Source: an uncultured Lachnospiraceae bacterium (GTDB lineage: Bacteria; Bacillota; Clostridia; Lachnospirales; Lachnospiraceae). From it: a stretch of 64,000 bases of DNA. Both the position numbers and the translations under genes were made by a program. Where the stretch lies: the NCBI GenBank assembly GCA_949132985.1, contig CASCGD010000003.1:1147-65146 (forward strand), given 5' to 3'. This document shows, piece after piece, positions 32,501 to 53,735 of this stretch (position 1 is its first letter; each line of letters begins with the position of its first letter). The notes beneath the pieces were generated by a model, which was not told the origin of the DNA, did not search any database, and worked only from the letters and a program-made list of their open reading frames with translations.

Positions 32501-32891
32501 AAATCCAATTACAGCTACACCCCATGCAACGGGCGGAATCTTTTCCACACCTCATTTTGGCCTTCTGGCAGAGGATGGCCCCGAGGCTTATATTCCGCTG
32601 GACGGCTCAAAAAATGCGCTGTCCATATGGGAAAAGGCCGGCGCGATGCTCGGCGTCGGACAGCCAAAGGACGAGGCGCTTGTATCAGGCATTGCGGGCA
32701 GCGCAGGGATGGCGCGTGAAAATAGCGGAATCAACATACAGATTAATAACAGTCCACACATTATCATACAGGGAAACGCTTCGGAAAGCGACGTCCAGGC
32801 AGGCGTGGCCCTGGGCGCAGAGGATATTATCAATATCGTAAAGGAATATGTTGACGGACGGGCGCGGGTGAGCTTTTCGGGCGGCAGGTGA
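29598..32891 (+). CDS. Tape measure protein (TP901-type core)
   Basis: 1097 aa Ala/Gly-rich; YMALAGW; HATGGI...AEDGPEA.IPL. Confidence 0.95.
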   Translation: MGKAQYMLEVKLGASTTASYNRNINRALKSLDGLESTAKHVAAGAAAAFAAVNISQLAEDAFGTYSKFEQAMRNTAAISNATTAEYEMMEQAAREAGRGTTKTVAESAEALGYMALAGWDAKESVEGLMPILKLSEATGAKLKETSDLVTDSMSAFGLSVRDMGVYLDELVAGNNNSNMTAVMLMETLIGTGGAARSLGASLEDTITAAGVLADNGTKAGKAGTAMNSILTRLAANSKARDALEEIGASVFDAEGNFVGLREAIIEIDKALAGMSTEQRSGYLKDIAGTHYYSQMEYLLASVREGANGAASAWDKLEKKIEDSGGALDQMNATATDTMSASWERMKSAVDDAKISLVDVFGGDVTDFLDHAAAKIPDITDHVTDFVSNNKAEIFDALETGGELIGNVWNIAEGSVTWLLDHEGAVVGALTSIGTALFLKKAVSSATSIVSFLSGLTTPMGVIAGLSGAVGVIAGLGAAVDQANERAGRANLDEHFGDISLSLEELQDIAGEIVHGNDLNTVAEMLDAVGESENALKGVNRALKELEKSSWKIRAGFSLDEQDSEQYVTKVDEYVRQAQEYIDAKGYEVTVGATLLFGADSERTAEASEYANELSERAQGFGRFIQQQIVVALQDDGIIDEAEDALIQHYAQSIDKIKTAISEGQSEARMQAIKVKYSGAELDEEGFLQLADEIGKATEENRDAALAAYESTMAIYNAKKLSDPSYKTYDEDARAAELAFFQQNADAVTNGASYLLESIQSAYPELESAVVQAQGKLSEILEQAFAGDGKGGLLRGDPDAWGNIISSLYDGMVADDPAVQHALEIILSQTEPIRDGLEQAARECEEAGEEIPEAVKSGLQKLDMLGALSGDKDSAWTLFMDAVADNEEYRNVIETAKENGANIPEQISESITGNQVSIENAIDGLYAYSNQYLDQIYSRGFDVDAEVRVNYKTTTKKPPSIYDGTGSYVNPITATPHATGGIFSTPHFGLLAEDGPEAYIPLDGSKNALSIWEKAGAMLGVGQPKDEALVSGIAGSAGMARENSGINIQINNSPHIIIQGNASESDVQAGVALGAEDIINIVKEYVDGRARVSFSGGR

Positions 32892-35249: not shown

Positions 35250-35552
35250 ATGGAAGTTGTATATGATAGAGGCTACATGCGCGAAGCTATGTCGGAGGCG
35301 GAACAGAAAAGTATTTCTTCCTGCGTCAACACGATTGCGTCCACTGCATATGGAACCGTGCCGTATGCACGGGAAATGGGGCTGAAACAGATATTGCCGC
35401 GGAATAATTCTGAAATGGCAAAGAATGAATATGCGACAGAGCTCGTGGATGCTGTTGAGAGCTGGGAGGAGCGGGTGGGTGTAAAAGAAGTTATATTTGA
35501 GGAGAATTGTGAAGTGAAGGTGGTGGTTGAATATGGCGGGCAGCTCGATTGA
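35250..35552 (+). CDS. Baseplate wedge gp25/gpW-like
   Basis: T..GTVPY.REMG...WE.R. Confidence 0.8.
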   Translation: MEVVYDRGYMREAMSEAEQKSISSCVNTIASTAYGTVPYAREMGLKQILPRNNSEMAKNEYATELVDAVESWEERVGVKEVIFEENCEVKVVVEYGGQLD

Positions 35553-43695: not shown

Positions 43696-43935
43696 ATGAA
43701 AGGAATCAACTGGACAAGGAAACTCACGAGCCGCAAATTCTGGGCGGCAGTCACGTCGTTTGTCTCGATGATGATTATGGCCACAGGCGGCACACAGGGC
43801 ACCGCGGAGCAGATAACGGCGCTTATTATGGCGGGCGCATCGGTTGTGGCGTATATCGTCGCGGAGGGTCTTACGGATGCGGCAAACACTGCCGCTGCCG
43901 GCATCGAGATCGAGGAGGGAACCGATGAAAATTAA
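43696..43935 (+). CDS. Holin
   Basis: INW.RKLTSRKFW, two TM, YI.AEG..DA. Confidence 0.85.
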   Translation: MKGINWTRKLTSRKFWAAVTSFVSMMIMATGGTQGTAEQITALIMAGASVVAYIVAEGLTDAANTAAAGIEIEEGTDEN

Positions 43936-44710
43936 AATAAAACTTGCATCCAAACACAACTACGGAGGATGGCGGGATACAAAACAGATCAAATACATCG
44001 TCCTGCATTATACCGCGGTTGATGGAGACAGCGACGAGGGTAATGCAAGCTACTTTGCAAGGCCGCACGATCCCAAGACGTCGGCACATTATTTTGTGGA
44101 TGACGACTCAATTACGCAGTCCGCGCCAGATAATTACATTGCCTATGCAGTCGGCGGCAAGCGCTGGGAGGACTGCAGGCAGACCGGAGGCGGCAAACTC
44201 TACGGCAAGGCCACCAATGCCAACACAATCAATATCGAGATGTGCGACAGCAAAAAGGACGGTGTGATCATGGCGCAGCCTGCGACGATCACGCGCACGA
44301 TCAAGCTGGTACGCCTGCTGATGGACAAGTACAATATCGATATCGATCATGTGATCAGACACTTTGACGTCAACGGCAAGCACTGCCCGGCCTATTACAT
44401 GGATGCGGGAGCGTGGGCTGCATTTAAGGCGCGCATCCTTGGCTACAGGGCCGGCAACAAGTACAGGACGGCCAAGCCCTGCTATCTGCGCCTCTCACCT
44501 GCTGGCAAAAAGCTCACCTATGAGGAGGCACCGGATCACATCAAGGCAAAATCCATAAAAAAGAAGGGGTATATCTCCTTCAAAAAAGGCGCGATCTTCA
44601 AGCTTGTCGAAGTTGCCGAAAAGAACGGCGATCTCTGGGGCAGGATGAAAACCGGCTATTGGGTACCGCTGCGCTATAAGAGCGCCCTGCGGGCGATCAT
44701 CTGCAAATAG
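43925..44710 (+). CDS. Endolysin, N-acetylmuramoyl-L-alanine amidase (Amidase_2)
   Basis: YIVLHYT, SAHYFVD, IEMC, RHFDVNGKHCP. Confidence 0.93.
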   Translation: MKIKIKLASKHNYGGWRDTKQIKYIVLHYTAVDGDSDEGNASYFARPHDPKTSAHYFVDDDSITQSAPDNYIAYAVGGKRWEDCRQTGGGKLYGKATNANTINIEMCDSKKDGVIMAQPATITRTIKLVRLLMDKYNIDIDHVIRHFDVNGKHCPAYYMDAGAWAAFKARILGYRAGNKYRTAKPCYLRLSPAGKKLTYEEAPDHIKAKSIKKKGYISFKKGAIFKLVEVAEKNGDLWGRMKTGYWVPLRYKSALRAIICK

Positions 44711-44721
44711 GGGCAGTCAAT

Positions 44722-44751
44722 ATAACAGGCGGCATTATGCCGCCTGTTATT
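44722..44751. terminator. Bidirectional terminator
   Basis: ATAACAGGCGGCA-tta-TGCCGCCTGTTAT between convergent genes. Confidence 0.85.
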
Positions 44752-45445
44752 ACTGAATCCATGCCTCCTGCGGCATATTGTCTAAAATACTGTCAAGATC
44801 CCGGAACGCGTTGCCTTTCCATGTGAATTGGAATCCGCTCGTTTCTTCATCTGCTTTTTCGTATAATTCTTCGATCTGCCTCACCATCTGCAAATATCCT
44901 GTATTCTGGTCGCGTAGGATATCCAGCGCGGACTTGATGCAGTCGTACCGGTACCGCAATCCGATATAGGATTGATAGGTTCCAAAACAATACCGCATGG
45001 CTTTGATTAACTCGTCTTTTGTAAGGCGTTTCAGCTTCTTTGCCGCTTCATCATTCGCCCATTCGCTTTCATAATAGCCTAATCCATAATAGTCATGTTC
45101 GTATATATCGTATCCAAGCATTTCACCGCCTTTATTCACGGCAGCAAAAAAGATATCAAAATATTCCGGCACATATTCATTCCGGAGGTCGTCCCACATC
45201 CGTTCGCATTCACCGGCCAGATCACCAAACATCATCTTAAATTCAAAGGCATCGTCCTCATCCCCATCAAGGGTATTGATGAGTGTGTCCTCATCCCCGT
45301 CAATATAATACTGCACTTCGTCGCACGCTTCCCCTATATCCCATAGGGCTTCCTGTATATCATCGAGGTTCAGCCCTTTCGCAAGCGGTTTCTTATAGCG
45401 TAAATTCTTCGCTTTCAAGCGCTTTGTTTCCTCTGCATTTATCAT
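44750..45445 (-). CDS. Acidic hypothetical protein (accessory island, left arm)
   Basis: 231 aa from MINAEE; AGAAAGTGAG RBS. Confidence 0.8.
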   Translation of the reverse strand: MINAEETKRLKAKNLRYKKPLAKGLNLDDIQEALWDIGEACDEVQYYIDGDEDTLINTLDGDEDDAFEFKMMFGDLAGECERMWDDLRNEYVPEYFDIFFAAVNKGGEMLGYDIYEHDYYGLGYYESEWANDEAAKKLKRLTKDELIKAMRYCFGTYQSYIGLRYRYDCIKSALDILRDQNTGYLQMVRQIEELYEKADEETSGFQFTWKGNAFRDLDSILDNMPQEAWIQ

Positions 45446-45451
45446 CTCTGT

Positions 45452-45747
45452 CTCACTTTCTCCCTGCATTACCCGGCAGGGACGGGAAAACGGTTAATGC
45501 TCAATCAGTTGACTATAAATTTGATCTGCTGCTTCTGGATCAGCGTCAAGCATATCAAACGTATCTTTGATTCTGGCATATACTTCCGAAACGATAGCCT
45601 TCTGTGTGATTGCCTTATCTTCTTGATTGATTCTGCCTGCTTCAAAAGCGTATCCGTCAATCAGTTCCTTTAAAGATTTTGTCCTGTAATGCATATCTCT
45701 TGCCATATCCTCCTCACTTTCTCCCTGCATTACCCGGCAGGGACGGG
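45452..45747 (-). repeat. Two identical 35-bp repeats (45452-45486, 45713-45747); structural variants at 45951-45980 and 46638-46670
   Basis: CTCACTTTCTCCCTGCATTACCCGGCAGGGACGGG occurs twice. Confidence 0.92.
45494..45706 (-). CDS. Small hypothetical protein
   Basis: 70 aa from MARDMHY; RBS within the repeat. Confidence 0.7.
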   Translation of the reverse strand: MARDMHYRTKSLKELIDGYAFEAGRINQEDKAITQKAIVSEVYARIKDTFDMLDADPEAADQIYSQLIEH

Positions 45748-45754
45748 GTAGAAG

Positions 45755-45940
45755 TTACATTGTAGTGTTATTGATAGTCACCATAATTTCACTTAAAGCA
45801 CTTAAGCAATCCTCCGCTATGCTTACATCAGACAGGAACAATTCATCTTCTCTGGATTCTGGTTCTTGGTCAATTATGTTTCTTGCCTTTTTGATATATG
45901 CAAGCACTCTTTCAGAATTTCTTTTATTCATCTGTTTCAT
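45755..45940 (-). CDS. Small hypothetical protein
   Basis: 61 aa from MKQMNK; purine-rich RBS. Confidence 0.65.
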   Translation of the reverse strand: MKQMNKRNSERVLAYIKKARNIIDQEPESREDELFLSDVSIAEDCLSALSEIMVTINNTTM

Positions 45941-45983
45941 ATCTTCCCTTCTTTCTCCCGGCGCAACCCCGCCGGGTGGGTGG

Positions 45984-46250
45984 TTAATATACGCATGCTT
46001 CTGCAATGCTGTTTTCGATAATTGAATAAGTGTCAATCTCTAACTTGTACTCTTCTTCGCTTATTACACCGAGTTCATGGTCAAGTTCAGCGTCTTCATA
46101 TAATTTTCTGTTCATGTCCTTGAAAACTTTCCTGCCGTATTTTGTAAATGATAAGTAGAGTTCAATTCCGCATGATGTTCCATATCTTTTTGCCATTTCT
46201 AATGCTTCTTTGCGAGAGTGGTTGTATTCGTTTTTATAATTTCTTTTCAT
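45984..46250 (-). CDS. Small hypothetical protein
   Basis: 88 aa from MKRNYKNE. Confidence 0.65.
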   Translation of the reverse strand: MKRNYKNEYNHSRKEALEMAKRYGTSCGIELYLSFTKYGRKVFKDMNRKLYEDAELDHELGVISEEEYKLEIDTYSIIENSIAEACVY

Positions 46251-46314
46251 TTCCCATATCTTCCGTTCCTTTGATATTGCCGGTTTAAAGGGTTTCCGGC
46301 GTCCTATATGGTTG

Positions 46315-46548
46315 TTATGCAATCCCGTAGAGTCTGGTAGATTTGCGGAAGGTTTTAAGGACTCCGCCCGGCGTCCCATCCGGCTTAATCGTCCAGTGTG
46401 TATGTATACCGGAGAAATCGCTGCACAGACGTACGGTTATGGTCTTAGGGGTCTCCCGGACGATCTCGACCACATCAAACAAAAATCCGTCTGCCTCTGC
46501 TAACTGTGTACCAACCTTAATGTTACCTGCTAAAATGATGCTTGCCAT
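46315..46548 (-). CDS. Small beta-rich hypothetical protein
   Basis: AGGAGGT RBS, 77 aa. Confidence 0.75.
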   Translation of the reverse strand: MASIILAGNIKVGTQLAEADGFLFDVVEIVRETPKTITVRLCSDFSGIHTHWTIKPDGTPGGVLKTFRKSTRLYGIA

Positions 46549-46701
46549 AGTTTATACCTCCTGTATGAAAAGTGCTGATTATAGTTTCTTTTATGTTGGA
46601 TTTTCACCCCGAAGCTATTCAGCCGGTTCCGGTCGCTGTTGCCGAACTCTACGCCCCGGCAACCGGGCGGTTAAAAGTGTTTTGTTCTTGTTTCTGTAAT
46701 T

Positions 46702-46746
46702 ATAATAACACTAATATTAGTGGTTGTCAACACTGATATTAAAGTT
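46702..46746 (-). promoter_or_regulatory. Strong leftward promoter TTGACA-17-TATTAT with two palindromic operators
   Basis: AACACTAATATTAGTGGT at 46707 and AACACTGATATTAAAGTT at 46729. Confidence 0.85.
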
Positions 46747-46826
46747 TTTTGAAAAATATTTTTGGAGTTGATTTTATGAAGCCTGTGTATTATAATGATG
46801 AAAAGTCAAAGAAAGGGAGTGGAGAA

Positions 46827-47054
46827 ATGTGGCGTTACAAGATTGATATTTTGAAAGAATTATCGAATAGAGGATACACAAGTACTAAAATGAGGAAAGA
46901 CAAAATAATGTCAGAAGGGACAATGCAGCATATCAGGAAGGGGAAGGGAATATCAGTTGATACACTGAATACGATATGTTTGATATTGCGATTGGAACCA
47001 TCTGATATAATAGAAATAATACCAACAGATGAAGAAAAGATAAAATATTTTTAA
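46827..47054 (+). CDS. Small XRE/HTH_26 repressor (Aca-like)
   Basis: MSEGTMQHIRKGKGISVDTLNTIC..L...PSDIIE; own promoter TTGATT-17-TATAAT. Confidence 0.88.
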   Translation: MWRYKIDILKELSNRGYTSTKMRKDKIMSEGTMQHIRKGKGISVDTLNTICLILRLEPSDIIEIIPTDEEKIKYF

Positions 47055-47055
47055 A

Positions 47056-47100
47056 AACACTAAAATTAGTGTTGACACATACCAAAAAAGGTGTTATTAT
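47056..47100 (+). promoter_or_regulatory. Strong rightward promoter TTGACA-17-TATTAT with two operators
   Basis: AACACTAAAATTAGTGTT at 47056 and CATACCAAAAAAGGTGTT at 47078. Confidence 0.85.
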
Positions 47101-47155
47101 ATAATTGTCCAAAGGGAACGGCGGACAATAACTCGAAAGGGAGAAAGGAGAACAG

Positions 47156-47326
47156 ATGAACGATATGGCAACAAACAAGCAGCTACAATTTATCACATGG
47201 TTGATAACAACGGCAACCGACAAATGCCAGACAATCGAGGAAGTAAGGGAGCTGAACAAGGAAATTCGCAAACACTCCGACGGACTGATTGATGAACTGG
47301 CAGAACAGAACAAAGGGGCTGAATAA
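47156..47326 (+). CDS. Small hypothetical protein (56 aa, MNDMATNKQLQF...)
   Basis: GAAAGGAG RBS; hand-translated. Confidence 0.65.
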   Translation: MNDMATNKQLQFITWLITTATDKCQTIEEVRELNKEIRKHSDGLIDELAEQNKGAE

Positions 47327-47425
47327 ACAGCCCCAACACAACAGAAAGGGCGGCAGGCACACAAGCCGCCCGATTCTCAAAAATTATAGCAAATATAAAA
47401 TGATAAATCAATGGAGGAAATAAAA

Positions 47426-47623
47426 ATGAAGAGATATGGCAAAGATTTCGAACTGACAGAGGAACTTATGGATACAATAGGCAGTTACATGGACGATGAC
47501 ATACGCGAGGATATCCACGGAGAGATGGCCCCTTGCACGCCGGAAGAATTTTTAAAAAGGTATCTGGAATCAGACCCGGACTTCGCGGAACTTTTGAAAT
47601 CTGAATTTGATATTGTGATGTGA
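47426..47623 (+). CDS. AcrIC5-like small acidic protein
   Basis: YMDDDIREDIHGEMAPCTPEEFLKRY resembles the AcrIC5 core as recalled; highly acidic. Confidence 0.65.
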   Translation: MKRYGKDFELTEELMDTIGSYMDDDIREDIHGEMAPCTPEEFLKRYLESDPDFAELLKSEFDIVM

Positions 47624-47636
47624 GGCGCTTTGAGTA

Positions 47637-48419
47637 ATGGGTATATGGGAAAAACTGTTGGAAACGTATGACACATATTGTGAGAGCGGGCGCGTAGCGC
47701 CCGTTGCGCATACGCGGATTATTATGCATATTGGGGTAGTATTGGATAAAGAGTCAAACGTGCTCGTTGCGGCAAAGGGGAAACAGTCCATACTCGCTCC
47801 GTGCACGATTGACTCCGAGTGCAGGACAAGAAATGTTGCCCCGCACCTGCTCCACGACAACGTATCGTACATTGTGCCGGGCGTGGACGATAAAAGGCAC
47901 AGGGCATACCTTGAGCAGTTGGGGGCGTATGTGTCACAGGTGAACGATCCGCTAGCACAGATCATATACGATTATGTAAAGCGGGAGACGATTGCAGATG
48001 ATTTGAAACATCTGGTCGATCTGGCGGATAGGAAAAATAAAGGTCTTGTTATTGGATTTGGGATAAGGGACATACCGGAGACGCTGGATGCGTCGATAGA
48101 TACGATATGGACGGATTATTATTTGTCCACTCTTCCCATAAATGGGATATGCGGCATCACCGGACAGCCGGATCATATACCGGGCAAATATCCGGGGAAT
48201 ATCAGGCATCCAAGTGACATGGCAAAATTGTTTGTCGGTAAAGATACAGATCCTTTGTGCAGTATGCCAAAGATAAAGGCGGGCTATATTGCCAGCCAGA
48301 AAATTATACATATGCTGCAGGCAATGCACGGAGGATGGGTGGAGCAAGACGAATTGCCTTTGACCGATTGTGTATTGAGGGTGGGTGATCTTGCACACGA
48401 AGAAAGAGCGGAATTATGA
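47637..48419 (+). CDS. Orphan, C-terminally truncated Cas8c/Csd1-like protein
   Basis: W.KL.ETYD, PVAHT, PCT..S..RT...APH.L.D...Y, YLEQL, GIC.ITG...P..IR...D.AKL, SQK. Confidence 0.75.
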   Translation: MGIWEKLLETYDTYCESGRVAPVAHTRIIMHIGVVLDKESNVLVAAKGKQSILAPCTIDSECRTRNVAPHLLHDNVSYIVPGVDDKRHRAYLEQLGAYVSQVNDPLAQIIYDYVKRETIADDLKHLVDLADRKNKGLVIGFGIRDIPETLDASIDTIWTDYYLSTLPINGICGITGQPDHIPGKYPGNIRHPSDMAKLFVGKDTDPLCSMPKIKAGYIASQKIIHMLQAMHGGWVEQDELPLTDCVLRVGDLAHEERAEL

Positions 48420-49036
48420 AAAACAGAACACAAAAGGTTTGCCAGGACTGCGGCAAGCCTTTTTATGGAGGTAAAGATTGCTTTTACTGCCCGGGCTGCG
48501 CCAAAAAGAAAAAATCTGATACGGTAAAAAGAATCCGTGTCTGCCAGGATTGCGGAGTTGAATTTTTTGGCGGGCCGCGGTCAAAGAGGTGTCCAAACTG
48601 CGCGCGTTTGGCAAAGCGGGAGCGGGACAGGAAAAATAAAAAAGAAGGCCCGAAAAGACCGACTGGCAGCATGGACGTATGCGCTGTATGCGGGAAAGAA
48701 TACATTGTCTCTTCTGGCCGTCAAAAATACTGCTCTGAGGCTTGCCAGCGCAAAGGCGTGTTAGAGTGGCAGCGGAAACATAAAAAAGGATATAGCAAAG
48801 AGTCGGGACAGGATGCAAAAAAGCAGGGACGGCGCAAAGAGCAAAAAAAGATATGCGTATATTGCTTGCGGGAATTTAAGAGCAGCACGTCAACAAATAC
48901 ATGCTCCGAATATTGCAGATCGGAGCAGAAAAAGCTTGAACAGTGTGTTGTCGACGTGAAAAGAGGGCGCAAAAGGGATTTGAAAAGATACGAGGATATG
49001 CGGAAGGAGTATAGGGAGAGGATGCGGAAAACATAA
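48416..49036 (+). CDS. Basic multi-Zn-ribbon protein
   Basis: Four CxxC...CxxC/CSxxC units; Lys/Arg-rich. Confidence 0.8.
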   Translation: MKNRTQKVCQDCGKPFYGGKDCFYCPGCAKKKKSDTVKRIRVCQDCGVEFFGGPRSKRCPNCARLAKRERDRKNKKEGPKRPTGSMDVCAVCGKEYIVSSGRQKYCSEACQRKGVLEWQRKHKKGYSKESGQDAKKQGRRKEQKKICVYCLREFKSSTSTNTCSEYCRSEQKKLEQCVVDVKRGRKRDLKRYEDMRKEYRERMRKT

Positions 49037-49208: not shown

Positions 49209-49246
49209 ATATAGCCCTAAATGCGCATAAACAGCGCAATAAGGCA

Positions 49247-49292
49247 TTGACTTTTAATCAAGTTGTCGGGGGTTCGAATCCCCCGTGTCTCA
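49247..49292 (+). other. attR core: 3' half of tRNA-Lys(UUU)
   Basis: TTGACTTTTAATCAA anticodon arm, GGTTCGAATCC T-loop and 3' acceptor strand present; no D-arm or 5' acceptor strand upstream. Confidence 0.88.
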
Positions 49293-53288: not shown

Positions 53289-53735
53289 ATGTCAAAGCCG
53301 GAAGAAAAAATAACGGATGCGGAGCTGGAGGTCATGCAGGCCTTGTGGGAGGCGAAGGGGCCGATGACGCTGGCGCAGGTGAAAGCGGCGCTTGCCGGGC
53401 GCAACAAAGATACGACAAAGACGCTGCTTCGCCGTTTGTGTGAAAAGGGAGCGGTAGGGCAGGAAAAGAGGGAGGTTTATTATTATTGTCCATTGGTGGA
53501 GCGGGATGAGCTGGGGCTTTACCGCACCGGCCGTCTGATCGAAAAGCTCTATGCGGGGAGTGCAAAGGCGATGGTGGCGTCTCTGGTGGAGCATGAGCAG
53601 CTTGGCCCGCAGGACGTGGAGGAGCTGCGGGAGCTGTTCGCCAATTTGACGGGGAAGGCAGAGCGCAAAGCGCCTTTTGAGACAACTTCCGACGACCTGC
53701 CCGTGAATGGAGACAGGCGGGCATTACATCATTAA
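53289..53735 (+). CDS. BlaI/MecI/CopY family repressor
   Basis: ITDAELEVMQALW...TKTLL.RL..KG. Confidence 0.92.
   Translation: MSKPEEKITDAELEVMQALWEAKGPMTLAQVKAALAGRNKDTTKTLLRRLCEKGAVGQEKREVYYYCPLVERDELGLYRTGRLIEKLYAGSAKAMVASLVEHEQLGPQDVEELRELFANLTGKAERKAPFETTSDDLPVNGDRRALHH

Follow-up and report, generated by a model that had tools for sequence, protein, structure and literature searches.

The closest described systems are the acr-aca loci, e.g., the Aca1- and Aca2-regulated operons of Pseudomonas and Pectobacterium phages that code for inhibitors (anti-CRISPRs, Acr) of clustered regularly interspaced short palindromic repeat (CRISPR) systems. Anti-CRISPR-associated (Aca) proteins are established repressors of acr promoters, and perfect self-targeting spacers flanked by a protospacer-adjacent motif (PAM), beside an intact interference operon, classically mark an active anti-CRISPR. 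The DNA analyzed here is a stretch of 64,000 nucleotides from an uncultured Lachnospiraceae bacterium (GenBank assembly GCA_949132985.1, contig CASCGD010000003.1, positions 1,147 to 65,146 of the forward strand), referred to throughout, at its full length, as the window. It contains an island at 44,750-49,036 which, from the list of open reading frames (ORFs) and the reading of ribosome-binding sites (RBS), was mapped as five minus-strand genes (L1-L5), one small plus-strand gene for a helix-turn-helix (HTH) protein and four plus-strand genes (R1-R4). This is probably an accessory island at the attachment-site (att)-proximal end of a temperate phage, working like an acr-aca locus with a right arm directed against type I-C systems. 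Homology, architecture, conservation and self-targeting were observed directly.

AcrIC5 was described by León et al. 2021 (PMC7913775). It blocks CRISPR interference (CRISPRi) and target DNA binding, and is placed by AlphaFold 3 on the PAM site of the Cas8c N-terminal domain (10.1101/2025.06.06.658234); a homolog from a prophage of the Gram-positive Bifidobacterium was experimentally active (Camara-Wilpert et al. 2023, PMC10651486). Anti-CRISPRs derived from Cas proteins have also been reported, AcrIB3 being a Cas5 homolog and AcrIB4 a homolog of the C-terminal 90 aa of Cas8b, and Table S3 of the same study has 24 mentions of 'cas8c' among its orphan viral cas rows (Katz et al., 10.1101/2023.06.24.545427). 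The use of orphan viral cas genes as anti-CRISPRs, and the occurrence of AcrIC5 homologs with many Aca partners in gut phages, are therefore already published.

The second gene of the right arm, R2, was assigned to the AcrIC5 family by its Pfam profile (Table 1). The product has an isoelectric point (pI) of 4.13 and a net charge of -12, and all 64 clusters of its homologs carry PF22147. Like AcrIC5, R2 is about 65 aa in length, very acidic, above the Pfam gathering score, located in a prophage beside an HTH gene, and found in a type I-C host. Unlike AcrIC5, it has a Cas8c fragment as downstream neighbor and not an RNA anti-CRISPR (Racr). The type I-C repeat of the host had no match in the window at up to 10 mismatches, whether as Racr or as solitary repeat, and Rfam screening of the window returned only an unrelated GA-cis RNA at 53646.

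The neighbor, R3, is an orphan homolog of the Cas8c N-terminal domain and is called vCas8c below. It was also identified as Cas8c by PADLOC (E 6e-26) and aligned from residue 1 with residues 1-259 of the 608-aa host Cas8c at 26% identity. An AlphaFold 2 (AF2) model with a predicted local distance difference test (pLDDT) score of 85 was searched using Foldseek, which matched only type I-C Cas8c chains (8GAF_G, 8DFS_I, 8DEJ_I, 8G9U_H and 8G9T_K; probability 1.0, template modeling (TM) score 0.44-0.66), with nothing else below E 0.4. R3 shares with genuine Cas8c/Csd1 (8DEJ, 8GAF) the N-terminal domain fold (probability 1.0, TM 0.59-0.66) and several motifs. It differs in being 260 aa against about 600, in lying elsewhere than between cas5c and cas7, and in the loss of an F...G motif and replacement of a histidine by tyrosine. 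R3 thus consists of the Cas8c N-terminal domain only, without the C-terminal/Cas11 part.

As in Cas-derived anti-CRISPRs and orphan viral cas genes, R3 is a lone Cas subunit homolog on a mobile element, in an acr-like cluster and diverged from the cellular copies. Unlike AcrIB4, it corresponds to the N-terminal domain of the large subunit in type I-C, the part that reads the PAM on the Cas5 side, and travels with a zinc-ribbon protein. By this analogy R3 is a candidate Cas-derived anti-CRISPR; no experimentally tested Cas8c-derived anti-CRISPR was known in the literature searched.

The vCas8c family comprised 81 clusters of 162-329 aa (almost all 217-329 aa), with Roseburia, Faecalimonas and many metagenomes as sources. 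In the family 28 positions are invariant and 21 nearly so, and all members stop at the same domain boundary. The genes reside in phages and in elements resembling integrative and conjugative elements (ICE), beside genes for HTH_26 or ribbon-helix-helix (RHH) proteins and for small acidic proteins; in the window and the related loci examined they never adjoin cas genes. In one phage (L022) the order is a gene for a 127-aa acidic protein, vCas8c, an R4-like gene and HTH_26, and in an ICE-like element (L028) an RHH gene, a gene for a 102-aa acidic protein and vCas8c. One lineage, found on 11 contigs, has an XRE-type HTH fused to the N-terminus of vCas8c (P0038, L034:3501-4490), which matches the pattern of Aca-Acr fusions. 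A vCas8c with a C-terminal AcrIC5 domain was represented by a single sequence (P0061) on one contig. A further protein, P0064, has a C-terminal tail (…DPNFKDLLKNKLGIEVV) similar to that of the AcrIC5-like family. Directly 5' of vCas8c in three unrelated contexts (L013:4597-5004, L022:3105-3488, L034:3109-3510) there is a family of acidic proteins of 127-135 aa (42-52% mutual identity) that is missing from the window; it is a candidate for a further anti-CRISPR or a vCas8c partner.

Motifs common to vCas8c and cellular Cas8c are P55, R63, D74, Y78 and G176 (vCas8c numbering). The F231...G235 motif (host numbering), present in 91-100% of cellular Cas8c N-terminal domains, was deleted in 46/46 vCas8c sequences, and the conserved histidine of the cellular copies (host H209) was replaced by tyrosine. 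The region of the deletion, vCas8c residues ~186-215 (window 48192-48281), was modeled with lower confidence and without regular secondary structure. From these sequence comparisons vCas8c looks like a specialized derivative and not a decaying fragment. In the tree, vCas8c grouped with the host-type Cas8c N-terminal domains against the other subclade (support 100). The cellular host-type domains formed a clade (Shimodaira-Hasegawa-like approximate likelihood ratio test (SH-aLRT) 95), and the vCas8c rows were compatible with a single old, diversified group (1 change), with a support of just 61. The vCas8c profile likewise retrieved only the host-type subclade. A full-length Cas8c was present in 37 of 200 genus representatives from the family to which the host belongs, and these yielded no further solo copy; matches on plasmids were genuine full-length cas8c genes. 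A single-protein search of IMG/VR with vCas8c, and tblastn against GenBank phages, returned nothing. The host and D. vulgaris Cas8c N-terminal domains are too divergent by sequence for the PAM residues N72 and Q212 to be placed on vCas8c. A predicted complex of vCas8c with the AcrIC5-like protein scored 0.01, which is uninformative either way.

The last gene, R4, codes for a basic zinc-ribbon protein. Its homologs (51-66% identity) adjoin vCas8c in L013-L020 and L022, and since this adjacency recurs in either gene order it argues for a joint function of the two proteins.

The assembly resembles a metagenome-assembled genome (MAG) of 166 contigs and 87% completeness. A second, full-length Cas_Csd1 match was located on contig C47, in an uninterrupted full-length cas3-cas5c-cas8c-cas7-cas4-cas1-cas2 operon, and an array of 38 repeats of the typical type I-C kind with 37 spacers on contig C6 (285-2819). 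Eight of the spacers matched the prophage in the window, at positions 11879-41523, with targets that included the tape-measure and tail-fiber regions. Two of these, one of them leader-proximal, matched perfectly (Table 1), and spacers 8 and 30 had one mismatch each. The type I-C PAM 5'-TTC was found at 6/8 protospacers (binomial at 1/64 each, ~4e-10). The older prophage-matching spacers had 1-5 mismatches; they record repeated encounters and escape.

The HTH gene codes for a predicted DNA-binding protein of the Cro/C1 type. Its likeliest start, at ATG 46827, follows the RBS AAGGGAG, and almost all homologs are 75 aa long and begin with MW[KR]YK. The two strong outward promoters, P_left and P_right, were the two top-scoring sigma-70-like sites within 43.5-50 kb. 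An 18-bp palindrome, AACACTAAWWTTAGTGTT, was found at 47056 (0 mismatches), 46707 (1) and 46729 (3), with no other copy in the 64 kb; the chance expectation for matches at up to three mismatches was 0.05. The copy at 47056, O_R, begins 2 nt past the HTH stop codon, and the left half-site of the weaker O_L2 is kept in relatives. An earlier note on this DNA had reported five left-arm and four right-arm ORFs, two outward promoters of the form TTGACA-17-TATTAT and an HTH gene between them, all of which were recovered here, the promoters at 11/12 each with a TG extension. Of the four palindromes it listed, those at 47056, 46707 and 46729 are real and conserved. The fourth, at 47078, was rejected; it has 6/18 mismatches, escaped the search at up to three mismatches and lacks conservation among relatives.

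The HTH family is large (>450 clusters at >=75% identity) and was represented by 259 loci in IMG/VR. The HTH segment was also the sole match of the island DNA to GenBank phages. Neighborhoods were compared for 80 IMG/VR loci with HTH proteins of 68-97% identity, with operator statistics on 79. The operator core CACTAA-N2-TTAGTG, searched at up to two mismatches, occurred within 70 nt 3' of the HTH stop codon in 79/79 loci and within 160 nt 5' of the start in 68/79, against 27 sites in the remaining 664 kb of the same loci. A divergent promoter-like site was present in 65/79, and the nearest upstream gene was divergent in 54/74. Among a second set of compared loci (the window and L004-L021) the operator always lay inside or abutting the promoter core, its location varying by lineage: on the -35 element in the window and L013-L021, or between the -35 and -10 elements in L004-L012.

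In L013-L021 the HTH protein is 96% identical and its gene is followed by genes for a 51-54-aa protein, a 135-aa acidic protein, an R4 homolog (65%) and vCas8c (53%), after which there is a second, convergent HTH_26 gene (45%); one locus of the group has the HTH and the small gene with the cassette absent. In L004-L012 (HTH 77% identical) the divergent arms hold other small genes, and one left arm carries a Lar restriction-alleviation domain. The cargo flanking the HTH gene in the IMG/VR loci amounted to 238 ORFs in 105 clusters, 59 of them singletons. Pfam matches were obtained for 7/96 cargo cluster representatives (two GIY-YIG, and one each DUF4258, MazG, DUF3310, LPD29 and DnaJ), so that this cargo is hypervariable and 93% Pfam-less. 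By these comparisons the HTH gene and its operator appear to form a portable switch whose cargo varies widely; its association with anti-CRISPR genes is recurrent and not exclusive.

Table 1. Features of the island and of its surroundings in the window.
Feature	Position	Strand	Basis and remarks
HTH_26 (Cro/C1-type) predicted DNA-binding protein, 75 aa; Aca-like candidate repressor	46827..47054	+	Pfam PF13443, E 1.9e-10
P_left, TTGACA-17-TATTAT, TG-extended -10	46702..46730	-	-35 at 46730-46725, -10 at 46707-46702; score 11/12
P_right, TTGACA-17-TATTAT, TG-extended -10	47072..47100	+	score 11/12
Promoter-like site of the HTH gene, TTGATT-17-TATAAT	46768..46796	+	score 10/12; kept in loci L013-L021
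O_L1 (AACACTAATATTAGTGGT), predicted operator	46707..46724	.	inside P_left spacer
O_L2, weaker predicted operator, 3 mismatches	46729..46746	.	22 bp from O_L1; overlaps P_left -35 and DNA upstream
O_R, perfect palindrome AACACTAAAATTAGTGTT, predicted operator	47056..47073	.	last two bases inside P_right -35
R1, 56 aa, acidic, helical	47156..47326	+	ORF map
Two very stable hairpins between R1 and R2	47315..47372	+	fold z -8.0
R2, 65 aa, AcrIC5-family homolog	47426..47623	+	Pfam PF22147, E 6.5e-10, 39.4 bits vs cut-off 27
R3, 260 aa, orphan Cas8c N-terminal-domain homolog (vCas8c)	47637..48419	+	Pfam Cas_Csd1 positions 1-224/559, E 9e-17
R4, 206 aa, pI 9.8, four CxxC...CxxC zinc ribbons	48416..49036	+	partial PHROG 1271 match
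L1, 77 aa	46315..46548	-	13 IMG/VR relatives (72-80% identity) with other surroundings, often close to the end of a contig
L2, 88 aa	45984..46250	-	one IMG/VR relative, 88% identity, not beside HTH
L3, 61 aa, acidic	45755..45940	-	ORF and RBS
L4, 70 aa, acidic	45494..45706	-	ORF with RBS after repeated hairpin
L5, 231 aa, pI 4.4, net charge -23	44750..45445	-	ORF and RBS
GC-rich perfect hairpin, 13 bp, common to converging endolysin gene and left arm	44722..44746	both	fold z -5.2 (+), -6.1 (-)
tRNA-Lys(UUU)-like gene, 3' ~50 nt, 5' half absent	49243..49292	+	read from sequence
Protospacer of spacer 1 (leader-proximal)	35411..35445	+	35/35 match, PAM TTC
Protospacer of spacer 6	32596..32629	+	34/34 match, PAM TTC

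Compared with acr-aca loci, the island likewise encodes a small HTH protein together with acr genes and has inverted-repeat operators overlapping a strong acr promoter; the regulator is conserved, the cargo is hypervariable, and a CRISPR system of the cognate type, with self-targeting spacers, is present in the host, subject to the caveat of MAG binning. It differs in that a single regulator would serve two divergent promoters. The part of the AcaFinder supplement (PMC9765179) considered here lists HTH_26 Aca candidates beside AcrIC5 homologs in gut phages, and the exact HTH family of the window was not found in that part. One of the listed candidates, uvig_181232, is 36% identical to the window HTH over 75 aa (E 1e-18). 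The proposal that the HTH protein represents a new Aca family is weakened by these listed candidates, of which uvig_181232 aligns end to end. A PDB sequence search with the HTH protein returned no Aca1 or Aca2 entry, only spurious polyubiquitin rows.

The island may work as follows. The HTH_26 protein, made from its own modest promoter, would bind the 18-bp palindromes at P_left (two) and P_right (one); the repressor logic is argued from the position of the operators, the co-conservation of operator and HTH, and the known behavior of Aca proteins. Upon entry into a naive cell no repressor would be present and both near-consensus promoters would fire; as the repressor accumulated, P_left and P_right would be throttled. 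It is plausible that R2-R4 are expressed continuously at a low level in the lysogen, since no terminator could be located separating the HTH gene from P_right and R2 is preceded by a weak promoter-like site; the self-targeting spacers would require such expression. R2 would block target DNA binding at the PAM site of Cas8c in the manner of AcrIC5. R3, by analogy with AcrIB3 and AcrIB4, would enter or titrate the complex of Cas5c, Cas7 and CRISPR RNA (crRNA) as a defective large subunit, the C-terminal/Cas11 part of Cas8c being needed for R-loop locking (10.1101/2022.06.15.496202). R4 would be the basic zinc-ribbon partner of R3, and L1-L5 variable cargo under the same switch. The cassette would allow the phage both to enter a host that has perfect PAM-flanked type I-C spacers against it and to remain there as a prophage.

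A more far-reaching version is offered tentatively and is, as a whole, unlikely. R3 and R4 would form a two-protein Cas-derived anti-CRISPR that either occupies the position of the large subunit in type I-C Cascade or sequesters Cas5c-crRNA, with the AcrIC5-like protein maybe cooperating, and the HTH/operator cassette would be a widespread switch marking dozens of anti-defense genes in phages of gut Firmicutes, L1-L5 included. The AcrIC5-like inhibitor may even sit on the PAM site of the decoy, as the single fused form hints.

Several points weigh against the acr-aca interpretation. R2 is distant from the solved AcrIC5 (7YHR; phmmer E 0.84), its family membership resting on the Pfam profile. 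The HTH gene precedes the acr genes and has a promoter-like site to itself, unlike the classic acr-then-aca operon. An AcrIC5-like gene was found within 5 kb of the HTH gene in only 4/80 IMG/VR loci (in two of these it occupies the right arm, as in the window) and vCas8c in 0/80, while a GIY-YIG endonuclease gene directly follows the HTH gene in 19/80. In two of the loci (L134:5314-5874 and L140:5314-5874) the right arm codes for a DUF4258 protein and then a small zinc-finger protein of the CxxC kind, the two resembling a toxin-antitoxin-type pair, i.e., cargo of the same HTH without an evident anti-defense role. With so few Acr neighbors, and with some cargo not evidently directed against defense, the HTH protein would be a general regulator of accessory cassettes and not Acr-specific. 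For L1-L5 and R1, Pfam, PHROGs, PADLOC and NCBIfam gave no family, and there was no fold or neighborhood evidence for function. Array, cas operon and prophage are on separate contigs (C6, C47 and C3, respectively) and possibly from different strains; even so, the phage lineage is under type I-C attack in the host species. Finally, we infer HTH binding, the kinetics of repression and CRISPR inhibition.

The acr-aca logic proposed in the earlier note accordingly is well supported for the regulator and the right arm, with an AcrIC5-family R2, a Cas8c-derived R3, a cognate type I-C host and an operator kept in 79/79 loci. For L1-L5 and R1 the claim that unannotated cargo would be new anti-defense candidates is pure guilt by association.

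The alternative that survives best is a generic moron cassette, in which a Cro-like repressor times or limits whatever cargo has recombined nearby; R2-R4 only would be anti-CRISPR, and the left arm and R1 would serve other ends (superinfection exclusion, toxin-antitoxin, homing or host takeover). The GIY-YIG genes, the DUF4258 and zinc-finger pair, MazG and DnaJ among the flanking cargo fit this explanation, as do the non-divergent upstream neighbor in 20/74 loci, the occurrence of L1 and L2 homologs elsewhere without the HTH gene, and the absence of anti-defense family matches for L1-L5. It is countered by a right arm that clearly holds anti-CRISPR-type genes, by the Lar gene in the left arm of one related locus, and by small, acidic, Pfam-less and hypervariable cargo of the sort typical of anti-defense loci. 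The two explanations differ solely in how far the term 'anti-defense' reaches, and we consider the moron cassette an unlikely one.

Much less probable is a repurposing of Cascade by R3 (with R4), whereby the Cas5-Cas7-crRNA backbone would be redirected, spacer acquisition affected, or the phage's own AcrIC5 buffered. The inhibitor R2 is encoded 13 bp from a paralog of its own predicted target domain, one fused vCas8c-AcrIC5 form exists, and a Cas homolog has been found to act on another CRISPR type than expected (Katz et al., 10.1101/2023.06.24.545427). Nothing in the present data supports such an activity, however, and the simplest precedent, AcrIB3 and AcrIB4, is the formation of defective complexes. 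That R3 is a decaying, non-functional cas8c fragment of phage or host origin beside a real acrIC5 is more improbable still: it would explain why R3 spans just the first ~40% of Cas8c and lacks the F231...G235 motif, but neutral decay does not fit the conserved positions and shared boundary of 81 clusters, the confident AF2 model, the deep diversification of a family distinct from cellular Cas8c, its recurrence with the same partners (the R4 family, the 127-135-aa acidic family and HTH_26) in several gene orders, or the HTH-fused lineage on 11 contigs.

Returning to the accessory island as an acr-aca-like locus, the remaining right-arm gene, R1, had no match in Pfam, PHROG, PADLOC or NCBIfam, and its slot in L004-L021 is occupied by unrelated small proteins, i.e., it is variable. 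The hairpins after R1 lack a U-tract and are followed, before R2, by the weak promoter-like site (47374-47401). The hairpins are perhaps an attenuator or a processing site, and together with this site they may divide the right arm in two, with R1 on one side and R2-R4 on the other.

In the left arm, the starts of L3, L4 and L5 were placed at 45940, 45706 and 45445, the longer ORF versions traversing intergenic hairpins. The L5 family comprised 448 clusters at 50% identity, and its AF2 model (pLDDT 93) matched only generic helical bundles (Z up to 9.9); nothing specific was returned by Pfam, PHROGs, PADLOC, NCBIfam, ESM Atlas (features and shape), Foldseek against PDB, or VIA-align. The one neighborhood of an L5 relative was a contig of 1.8 kb. 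An anti-defense role of L1-L5 is the leading guess, made by guilt by association. A GC-rich hairpin followed by AGAAAG...RBS precedes each left-arm gene, at 45455-45490, 45712-45745, 45945-45985 and 46640-46670 (minus strand), and similar GC hairpins precede L1 homologs in other phages (L163-L171). Two of the left-arm copies are identical at 33/34 positions, and plain minimum free energy (MFE) z-scores were only -0.7 to -1.6; pairing of the loops with flanking bases could possibly give H-type pseudoknots.

On its left the island borders an Amidase_2 endolysin gene (43844-44710; Pfam E 5.5e-21), and on its right the tRNA-Lys-like fragment, which is, from its sequence, the probable att site at the prophage end. 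Genes of the sizes expected for terminase, portal, tape-measure and tail-fiber proteins, all on the plus strand, precede it. Because the endolysin gene and the tRNA-Lys-like fragment flank the island and genes of phage structural size lie upstream, it sits at the att-proximal end of the prophage. ARAGORN found no complete tRNA in the whole window, and in a search for attL, an integrase or a CI repressor Pfam gave no hit in its first 5 kb. No second att copy was found in the assembly, and the left prophage end is not on the window contig. The bidirectional terminator previously said to close the left arm corresponds to the hairpin at 44722-44746, which is stable on both strands, has no clean U-tract and was not called by the terminator scan; it is probably a bidirectional terminator or a stabilizer. 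The Rfam match to the GA-cis small RNA (sRNA; 53646-53732, 41.6 bits vs gathering score 34.7) falls in host DNA past the prophage.

Added here to what was already published are the layout of two promoters with three operators, conserved in about 80 phages; the proteins that accompany vCas8c (the zinc-ribbon R4 and the acidic family of 127-135 aa) and its fusions to HTH and AcrIC5; the relation of vCas8c to the host-type Cas8c subclade; and a host with perfect self-targeting spacers. Current concepts are unchanged by the island and are extended to a new gene set, which is experimentally attractive and not surprising. An operon of 1.9 kb unites an AcrIC5 homolog, a putative decoy made of the Cas8c N-terminal domain and the conserved zinc-ribbon protein that goes with it, and the apparent host has an intact type I-C system. 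Nature thus provides a clean example in which to study anti-CRISPRs of Cas origin acting on type I-C, whose minimal Cascade is used in genome editing. The HTH gene and its operator (CACTAA-N2-TTAGTG) are a very conserved and readily searchable guilt-by-association anchor that leads to hypervariable and nearly all unannotated cargo in phages of the gut Lachnospiraceae type.

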